From: a virus
Lineage: Duplodnaviria; Heunggongvirae; Uroviricota; Caudoviricetes
Virus record (IMG/VR): IMGVR_UViG_2703718811_000003
Span: 1 to 9,779 of that record
Direction: 5' to 3' (one strand)
Length of the DNA: 9,779 bases
The notes under the pieces are model-generated. The model was not told the DNA's origin, searched no databases, and saw only the letters and a program-made list of their open reading frames with translations. A program made the position numbers and the translations under genes. Positions 4,536 to 4,928 of the stretch are shown piece by piece; position 1 is the stretch's first letter, and every line of letters starts with the position of its first letter.

Positions 4536-4928
4536 ATGGCAAAGCTGGACTGGAAAAAGCTGGAGCAGGCATTCCGACGCGAACATGCCGAAACGGGAAT
4601 AACATTACTGGACTGGTGCCGGAAGAAAAAGATTAATTACAACACCGCCAGAACCCGTATAAAAATGGGCAAAATCGATCATGAAATTGATCATAAAACC
4701 GATCATGAAATCGATCATGACATCTCAGATGAAGAACCCAGCAATGACGCGTGTTCCGACGATGAAAAATGCGCAAAAAACTCTGAAAAAAACTGCGCAA
4801 ATTCGGCAGAAACGAAACGGATTCGTGGTTCCCGACTTTTACCTCCTTCAAACGCTTTTTCTCAGCGAAACACCCACGCCGTAAGACACCGTGGATACCG
4901 GAAGCCGCACATTGTTCCCACGTCTTGA
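4536..4928 (+). CDS. HTH-containing protein with acidic His/Asp repeat; possible remnant of a terminase small subunit-like packaging protein (uncertain)
   Basis: N-terminal ~45 aa (MAKLDWKKLEQAFRREHAETGITLLDWCRKKKINYNTARTRIK) resembles the HTH of phage small terminase / DNA-packaging proteins. It is followed by the (I/T)DH(E/K/D) x4 repeat. The C-terminal third is low-complexity and overlaps the next ORF, so the 3' end may not be genuine. Weak RBS. Confidence 0.45.
   Translation: MAKLDWKKLEQAFRREHAETGITLLDWCRKKKINYNTARTRIKMGKIDHEIDHKTDHEIDHDISDEEPSNDACSDDEKCAKNSEKNCANSAETKRIRGSRLLPPSNAFSQRNTHAVRHRGYRKPHIVPTS
4674..4721 (+). repeat. four tandem 12-bp units (atcgatcatgaa-like), each containing a GATC Dam site
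   Basis: Units at 4674-4685, 4686-4697, 4698-4709 and 4710-4721. GATC at 4677, 4689, 4701 and 4713. In frame the repeat encodes IDHE-IDHK-TDHE-IDHD. Confidence 0.9.

Follow-up and report, generated by a model that had tools for sequence, protein, structure and literature searches.

A Tandem GATC Array behind the Helix-Turn-Helix Segment of a Truncated terS Gene Is a Candidate Packaging Site Related to P1 pac

A Tandem GATC Array in the Small-Terminase Gene

The window analyzed here (9,779 nucleotides [nt], positions 1 to 9,779 of the IMG/VR virus record IMGVR_UViG_2703718811_000003, Caudoviricetes) is the late region of a Shiga toxin (Stx) prophage of the short-tailed 933W/Sp5 type (Sepvirinae). 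It contains, within terS, the gene for the small subunit of the terminase (TerS), four tandem 12-bp units that each carry a GATC (Dam) site. The initial annotation of the window had placed these units in a gene whose N-terminal helix-turn-helix (HTH) resembled small-terminase proteins; the gene does belong to the small-terminase family, as its match to phrog_370 indicates, but it is truncated in the window. The features concerned are as follows.

4536–4928, plus strand: truncated terS, an open reading frame (ORF) of 130 codons matching phrog_370, terminase small subunit, over residues 1–123 (E = 3.6e-47)
4536–4670, plus strand: HTH-coding segment, codons 1–45, three helices, recognition helix YNTARTR
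4674–4721, plus strand: YGATCA array, hexamers CGATCA, TGATCA, CGATCA, and CGATCA, each with an A-rich spacer
4770–4775 and 4794–4799, plus strand: two TGCGCAA hexamers, 24 bp apart, 54–78 bp downstream of the array and in another frame
4448–4453, plus strand: isolated CGATCA (GATC at 4449) that precedes the array by 228 bp and whose context, ATCGATCAAAT, is similar to that of the repeat units
4897–4898, no strand: deletion junction, where terS stops after nt 362 (codon 121) and the sequence runs on inside a virion gene from further downstream (phrog_482)

The four units (ATCGATCATGAA, ATTGATCATAAA, ACCGATCATGAA, and ATCGATCATGAC) have their GATC starts at 4677, 4689, 4701, and 4713, an exact 12-bp spacing, and Tandem Repeats Finder delimits the repeat at 4672–4724 (period 12, 4.4 copies, 82% matches). 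The YGATCA hexamers, one TGATCA and three CGATCA, span 4676–4718. The array is in the frame of ORF 4536–4928 and encodes the peptide K-IDHE-IDHK-TDHE-IDHD, that is, the pattern (I/T)DH(E/K/D) four times over, each GATC being made of the Asp codon GAT and the first C of a His codon. The whole window contains 22 GATC, for about 37 expected from its base composition, and four GATC within 48 bp were obtained in 18 of 2000 dinucleotide-preserving shuffles; the exact periodicity is due to the location of the sites in a tandem repeat. The GATC cluster is real and unusual. It is the only one in the window and, besides the isolated site at 4449, the next GATC lies about 1 kb away.

Codons 1–121 of the ORF match a TerS of 268 amino acids (the first 362 nt of terS), and the last nine codons form an out-of-frame fusion tail. 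Full-length terS (locus L002, positions 6137–6943) has terL and then the portal gene next to it, and a full-length relative matches phrog_370 at E = 3.8e-125. In the AlphaFold2 model of full-length TerS, a three-helix HTH occupies residues 6–41 (helices 6–20, 24–31, and 35–41) with pLDDT values of 85–88, residues 45–122 have a pLDDT below 50, and a long helical core covers residues 127–238. The array, at terS codons 47–62, thus marks the start of the predicted disordered linker, directly after the HTH. Searches of Pfam and of the sequences of solved structures with TerS returned nothing useful.

GATC Content and the Encoded Peptide

The initial annotation had stressed that four Dam sites so closely spaced are far denser than chance. 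The number of sites, their exact period, and the dinucleotide-preserving shuffles all uphold this, but the argument loses its force once the peptide is taken as given. By permuting synonymous codons within terS, we found that the four GATCA of the Stx allele compare with 2.2 expected (P = 0.10), and that the five GATCA of a related Salmonella allele compare with 3.7 expected (P = 0.2). For this allele taken alone, the GATC content is largely forced by the peptide, and a density argument for one allele does not tell whether the repeat serves as a DNA signal or only as a peptide. When YGATCA and the downstream TGCGCAA were counted together, six occurrences were found for 2.3 expected in the Stx allele (P = 0.002) and six for 2.9 expected in the Salmonella allele (P = 0.005).

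Comparison of the alleles is more informative. The Salmonella alleles, at a protein identity of about 57–61%, contain the units AGT GAT CAA AAA, AGT GAT CAT AAA, AAC GAT CAT GAA, AGT GAT CAA AAA, and AAC GAT CAC AAT, with GATC at gene positions 142, 154, 166, 178, and 190, which are also the E. coli positions, and with hexamers that are mostly TGATCA. In these units Asp is always encoded by GAT, the next codon is CAA, CAT, or CAC, and the flanking residues differ. Across the GATC class, the nucleotides GATCA are therefore invariant while residues 1 (I, T, S, or N), 3 (H or Q), and 4 (E, K, D, or N) of the unit vary, and His and Gln, the two residues found at position 3, are the only amino acids whose codons start with CA. 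The case set beforehand as a refutation, namely homologs that conserve the amino acid repeat and not its GATC, was not seen; the homologs keep GATCA and vary the amino acids.

Hexamer Arrays in the Wider TerS Family

The terS DNA was drawn from viral contigs, assemblies, and a set of genomes limited to one per species. E. coli alleles at 75–77% identity have, in place of the GATC units, units of the type AGT GCG CAG AAA, AAT GCG CAA AAA, and so on, in which TGCGCA takes over both the 12-bp period and the positions in the gene; the unit layout is that of the GATC class, with GCGC in place of GATC. The TGCGCA pattern extends to Citrobacter, Serratia, Yersinia, Brenneria, Aeromonas, and Xenorhabdus (37–60% protein identity). 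Alleles of this class contain five to eight forward TGCGCA(A/G) (three to five in Xenorhabdus) between terS nt 130 and 310, and these occur in all three reading frames, where they encode Ala-Gln (xxT GCG CAA), Leu/Val/Met-Arg-Lys (xTG CGC AAx), or Cys-Ala-Lys (TGC GCA AAx).

We pooled 15 nonredundant loci from these genera and Escherichia, together with the surrounding 4–7 kb. Of 113 TGCGCA occurrences, 87 fall within terS nt 100–299; per 100 bp and locus, the peak bin contains about 4.4 of them, compared with about 0.05 elsewhere. The 96 GCGCA cores are distributed over the three frames (60, 15, and 21), and in 89 of the 96 the core is preceded by a T, irrespective of the codon before it. The flanks are rich in A, and the spacings cluster between 9 and 14 bp (at 9, 10, 12, and 14 bp). 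Synonymous shuffles yielded 0.5–1.3 expected copies for five to seven observed, with P ≤ 0.001 in 14 loci of the class; the remaining one of the 15, from Xenorhabdus and with three copies, gave P = 0.007. These related arrays result from selection at the DNA level and are not a peptide repeat.

A second variant was found in terS genes of Pectobacterium, Brenneria, and Symbiopectobacterium (loci L216–L218, L223, and L226, nt 3150–3230), which have five TTCGCA(A/G) and one ATCGCA in two frames (AAT TCG CAA, ATT CGC AGT, TCG CAA AAA, and so on; peptide NSQIRSSQKxDSQIRK), a distinct recognition helix, SAKRYITIK, and neither TGCGCA nor GATC. Here six TTCGCA/ATCGCA were observed for about one expected (P < 0.0005). 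Finally, two domain-swapped TerS (L245 and L246, both at 1590–1800) have a common C-terminal core and unrelated N-terminal domains, each with its own repeat: one has a GGTACG repeat, with three copies of GGTACGAAA and an inverted CGTACC, and the other has three to four TCCG(T/A)C and two inverted GGACGGA, the direct and inverted copies encoding unrelated peptides. This pattern points to a joint exchange of the DNA-binding domain and its array of sites. At least five specificities have thus been seen (TGCGCA, TTCGCA, YGATCA, GGTACG, and TCCGTC). No description of TGCGCA or TTCGCA arrays in terS was found in the literature searched, and cassettes of an HTH and an adjacent array in terS apparently form a broader pattern that has gone undescribed.

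The TGCGCA and TTCGCA arrays resemble the GATC array in their position in the gene, in their layout (a spacer rich in A, one T or C, a core of 4 bp, and CA), in their 9–14-bp spacing, and in coding for x-(Ala/Asp)-(Gln/His)-x. They differ from it by their core, GCGC or TCGC, which contains no Dam site, and by the strong statistical evidence for selection on DNA, which the four-unit GATC array lacks when taken alone.

The two TGCGCAA of the window read TGC GCA (Cys-Ala) and form the core of a second 12-bp tandem repeat (4765–4801). This frame-1 TGCGCAAA/TGCGCAAAT pair is retained in E. coli alleles with either type of array, and Cys-Ala is conserved in many enterobacterial TerS alleles, again of both types, in the midst of a hypervariable acidic linker. 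Such a conserved Cys-Ala is easier to explain by a DNA motif than by the protein, and the pair at 4770–4799 is a possible second arm of the candidate site.

Correspondence between Recognition Helix and Hexamer

We classified 99 full-length homologs by the motif of their recognition helix and counted in their linkers the dipeptides typical of each unit. The 83 proteins with an ARR[YH] helix have 3.4–4.6 Ala-Gln/His, 0.4–0.5 Asp-Gln/His, and 0.5–0.8 Ser-Gln/His or Ile-Arg. In the eight proteins with ART[RQ] or ARIR (a single ARIR), the corresponding counts are 0, 4–5, and 0.8–2.0, and in the eight with AKR[YH] they are 0–0.6, 0–0.7, and 4.7–4.8. The type of hexamer therefore tracks the helix that would read it.

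Copy Number in Close Relatives

TerS relatives at least 92% identical retain the GATC array, and in the 59 loci with the E. coli allele GATC was retained in every unit. Most loci have four units, while five were found in L035, three in L240 and L241, and seven in L247; variants with one or two units were seen in protein clusters, only as truncated or partial records. The slippage in copy number anticipated by the initial annotation is thus observed across relatives (1, 2, 3, 4, 5, and 7 copies). Because a unit is 12 bp long, all these variants remain in frame; we had considered that the repeat might be a phase-variable contingency locus operating by slipped-strand mispairing, and discarded the idea, as the copy number is polymorphic (1–7) but the reading frame is never switched.

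A scan of viral contigs for GATCAT-N6-GATCAT-N6-GATCAT returned more than 120 matches, many of them in contigs of giant viruses (GVMAG) and in unidentified contigs from metagenomes. Deposited records of Stx2a prophages, at least eight of them, share an IS629 insertion at one breakpoint, a few bases past a three-unit array (…ACC GAT CAT GAC ATC T, followed by GAACCGCCCCGGG…; L240, 2660–2720; LC727869.1 and similar, hits H93–H100), which truncates terS at residue ~55. The TerS truncations at residue 55 in the LC7278xx records, considered at one point as breaks at the array, are in fact these insertions.

Comparison with P1 pac and Other Recognition Sites

The pac site of phage P1, about 161 bp long, has seven TGATCA/G hexamers with Dam sites and an IHF site; the cut is central and is promoted by methylation (PMC10028697). 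The start of the TerS in the window, MAKLDWKKLEQAFRREHAETGITLLDWCRKKKINYNTARTRIKMGK, was compared with the N-terminus of P1 PacA. The match is confined to the N-terminal ~45–95 residues. BLASTP aligns the two proteins over about 90 residues (E = 0.009); hhalign aligns TerS with the HTH of PacA (residues 3–44) at E = 5.4e-5 and a probability of 66%; and the PHROG matches are reciprocal (3e-5 and 1.9e-4), PacA hitting phrog_1711 and phrog_370, and the Stx TerS phrog_370 and phrog_1711. At the level of sequence, these matches indicate that the N-terminal HTH of TerS is homologous to that of PacA.

The left pac hexamers of P1 (aTGATCAtTGATCActctaaTGATCAacatgcaggTGATCAc) lie just 3' of the HTH-coding part of pacA and encode the peptide M-I-I-D-H-S-N-D-Q-H-A-G-D-H. 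They occupy pacA codons 65–78, with an HTH at ~10–44, which is comparable to the window array at codons 47–62, with an HTH at 6–41. Both systems therefore have hexamers with a central GATC within the gene of the DNA-recognition subunit of the terminase, immediately after the N-terminal HTH segment, and both arrays encode peptides of the IDH/NDQ/GDH type. The right arm of P1 pac includes one hexamer in another reading frame, and the synonymous shuffle recovers the known hexamers of P1 pac, with eight observed for 2.8 expected. Both P1 and 933W are treated as headful packagers. In addition, 933W encodes a Dam-family methylase (PF05869, E = 1e-64). P1, too, has a Dam-type methylase of its own, Dmt. 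Because a dam gene is found in 600 or more viral contigs, from phages of many types, its presence does not single out the GATC class. In P1, pac is recognized by PacA/PacB with IHF and HU. As a separate observation, the part of P1 pac that separates the cut from the right arm (L242, 1830–1850) contains AAGCGCCAAAATAAGCGCATAAA, with GCGCA-like elements that recall TGCGCA, which may be a coincidence.

Repeated short sites in or beside the small-terminase gene are also known from the R sites of lambda cosB, bound by gpNu1, and from the pacL and pacR boxes of SPP1, bound by G1P; in both cases the N-terminal HTH of TerS binds the sites and positions the large subunit. These systems resemble the array in this respect and differ from it by their protein families and site sequences, by the cohesive ends of lambda, and because neither has a Dam site in each repeat or tandem in-frame units. 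The origin iterons in the O gene of lambda and 933W (according to the 933W annotation) likewise are tandem protein-binding repeats inside the gene of the binding protein, and the stretch of lambda O that they encode has been described as a linker, but they serve replication initiation and consist of 18-bp units without GATC.

A Candidate pac Array and Its Alternatives

We consider it probable, with room for doubt, that the array serves as a pac array to which TerS binds, a variant of the P1 type with a single arm. The simplest account is that it is a relative of the left arm of P1 pac, and the YGATCA version of a family-wide element. The initial annotation had raised the possibility of a P1-like pac, which is partly borne out by the homology of the HTH to that of PacA, the equivalent position and peptide of the hexamers, the DNA-level selection in relatives, and the correspondence between helix and hexamer. 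We infer TerS binding, pac function, a direction of packaging, and methylation dependence, the last by analogy with P1 and from the Dam site at the center of each hexamer.

In this model, a run of short hexamers directly 3' of the HTH-coding DNA would be an element common to the small-terminase family, of which the array would be the local version. The HTH domains of a TerS oligomer would bind the hexamers and thereby mark the phage concatemer for headful packaging, the array acting as the recognition part of pac. The hexamer would vary by class: YGATCA with a 12-bp period in the Stx allele, TGCGCA in most relatives, and TTCGCA in the Pectobacterium/Brenneria group. The peptide of the disordered linker would then be largely dictated by the DNA signal, an in-frame TGCGCA giving x-Ala-Gln/His and an in-frame TGATCA x-Asp-Gln/His. 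Binding or cleavage would probably be sensitive to adenine methylation, as at P1 pac, with a methylation state set by the host Dam and the Dam-family methylase of the phage. Replication slippage would alter the number of units (1–7 copies) and leave the reading frame intact.

Several points weigh against this interpretation. The shuffle results for the Stx and Salmonella alleles alone have been given above; moreover, the GATC alleles of E. coli and Salmonella probably share a single origin, so that the GATC class counts as one evolutionary observation, and the units of the array are recent duplicates of one another, so that their shared codons are not independent evidence. Beyond the N-terminal ~90–100 residues, neither BLASTP nor PHROG profiles detect a match between TerS and PacA. 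The two arms of P1 pac (four and three hexamers, at irregular spacings of 7–15 bp) flank the IHF site and the cut, whereas the window has a single, strictly tandem arm of 12-bp units with a variable copy number, in which only one of the four hexamers is a perfect TGATCA. A second GATC arm was not found in the window, where the two TGCGCAA are the only candidate partner, and no IHF site was recognized by eye. The variants with one or two copies, if functional, would imply that a four-site array is not strictly required. The motifs of the domain-swapped TerS were picked after inspection of the data, and their P values are therefore optimistic. PacA itself combines an ARRY-type helix with TGATCA hexamers, so that the code linking helix to hexamer cannot be simple.

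The literature is also divided. Terminases of the 933W type are classified as headful by TerL phylogeny, but published statements on cos versus headful packaging in 933W-type Stx phages disagree (PMC7566468 versus PMC6029569 and PMC7317114), one paper calling 933W a cos phage, which likewise tells against a pac array. In the literature searched, no mapped pac site or packaging ends were found for 933W-type phages, nor any binding or methylation data.

The main surviving alternative, which we regard as unlikely, is that the repeat is a low-complexity linker at the protein level, grown by slippage, whose GATC are a by-product of Asp (GAT) and His (CAT) codons. It accommodates the nonsignificant excess of GATCA over the synonymous expectation in the Stx allele (4 versus 2.2, P = 0.10), the predicted disorder of the segment, and the variation from one to seven copies, since copies made by slippage inherit their codons. 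It does not account for the hexamers of relatives, which occur in two or three frames, and on both strands in one variant, far above the synonymous expectation, nor for the invariance of GATCA while residues 1, 3, and 4 vary. Furthermore, the experimentally defined P1 pac encodes a peptide of the same type, and GATC is present in every unit of the 59 E. coli-allele loci.

Less probable still, TerS may bind the array to autoregulate the terS-terL late operon or to assemble its ring, the packaging cut or recognition site being elsewhere. The comparative data tie the DNA-binding domain to the adjacent repeat and are silent on what binding achieves, which leaves room for such a role; on the other hand, the homologous hexamers of P1 belong to the minimal pac site, and in P1, P22, SPP1, and lambda, the site (pac or cosB) is located within terS or beside it, and the DNA-binding domain of TerS binds there.

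The least likely of the three is a Dam- or SeqA-sensing element unrelated to packaging (sequestration of new DNA, tuning of late genes, or lysogen stability): four GATC 12 bp apart would by sequence be a good SeqA-type target, the phage encodes a Dam-family enzyme, and Dam is reportedly needed for stable 933W lysogeny (a finding ascribed to Murphy et al. in 2008), but dam genes are widespread among phages, as noted above, and most members of the family have TGCGCA or TTCGCA with zero or one GATC at the array position, so that GATC sensing, proposed in the initial annotation as an alternative, is ruled out as the conserved function.

A bolder extension of the pac array interpretation, whose chances seem to us slim although a little better than those of the peptide-repeat linker, is that the 5' third of terS is a self-contained specificity cassette, made up of a DNA-binding domain and the array of sites that it binds, which is swapped as a unit among headful phages, that packaging from YGATCA sites is gated by Dam, and that relic arrays are live pac sites fired in trans. 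The YGATCA class includes the medically important Stx2 phages; if so, its packaging initiation would be gated by host and phage methylases, as in P1, and a co-resident Stx phage would package neighboring prophage and chromosomal DNA from relic arrays (lateral transduction). Phages of the 933W type spread Shiga toxin genes. A defined packaging-start site would make transduction by them, including lateral transduction, predictable and testable. Defective Stx-like prophages, of which genomes of enterohemorrhagic E. coli contain many, could be assessed as pac sites acting in trans, and a concrete link between Dam methylation and the biology of Stx phages could be examined. More generally, a motif recurring in several frames right after the HTH segment of TerS may serve as a sequence-only predictor of pac and of terminase specificity, possibly in other families as well.

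A change from Arg to Thr in the recognition helix, considered as the cause of the change from CG to AT in the hexamer, is weakened by PacA, in which ARRY goes with TGATCA. The phage Gally of strain LF82, whose pac was mapped in termS by read coverage, cannot be used as a direct test, as its TerS is a different protein of 141 amino acids, without resemblance to the one studied here and encoded upstream of a PBSX-family TerL. Nor can the ends of deposited records be taken as physical ends: in the PV1894xx records the break inside terS coincides exactly with the start codon of terL, which identifies them as reoriented.

The Defective Prophage and Its Surroundings

In the window, terS is preceded by the genes for lysozyme, Ant, Rz, and Bor (the last on the minus strand). 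Positions 4400–4897 are 99.2% identical to terS of many Stx phages, and the BLASTN match to VT2phi_272 stops at 4897. The deletion has removed the 3' part of terS, which encodes the helical core, as well as terL, the portal gene, and the genes that come next in intact phages; the prophage in the window has no terL, portal, or capsid gene, and the complete TerS architecture (HTH, linker, and helical core, with terL next) is found in intact phages and is absent here. A query across the junction was not covered to 80% or more at any single place in 5,426 complete E. coli genomes, so that the junction is either the product of a rare deletion or a join made during assembly.

With a truncated terS and no terL, portal, or capsid genes, the prophage has no terminase of its own with which the site could work, and the array is a relic. 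It would be active only in trans, if an intact phage of the same type resided in the cell and supplied its terminase; more speculatively, such recognition might start packaging into the rest of the prophage and beyond.

Two further observations concern the surroundings of the array. The isolated CGATCA at 4448–4453 falls within ORF 4235–4480, whose PHROG label, "Rz-like spanin," looks doubtful. ORF 6492–8654 (720 amino acids) has long collagen-like Gly-X-Y tracts and is probably a tail-fiber or side-fiber protein of Stx-type podoviruses; its nested 45-, 63-, and 90-bp tandem repeats, at 8025–8304, constitute another repeat of variable copy number.

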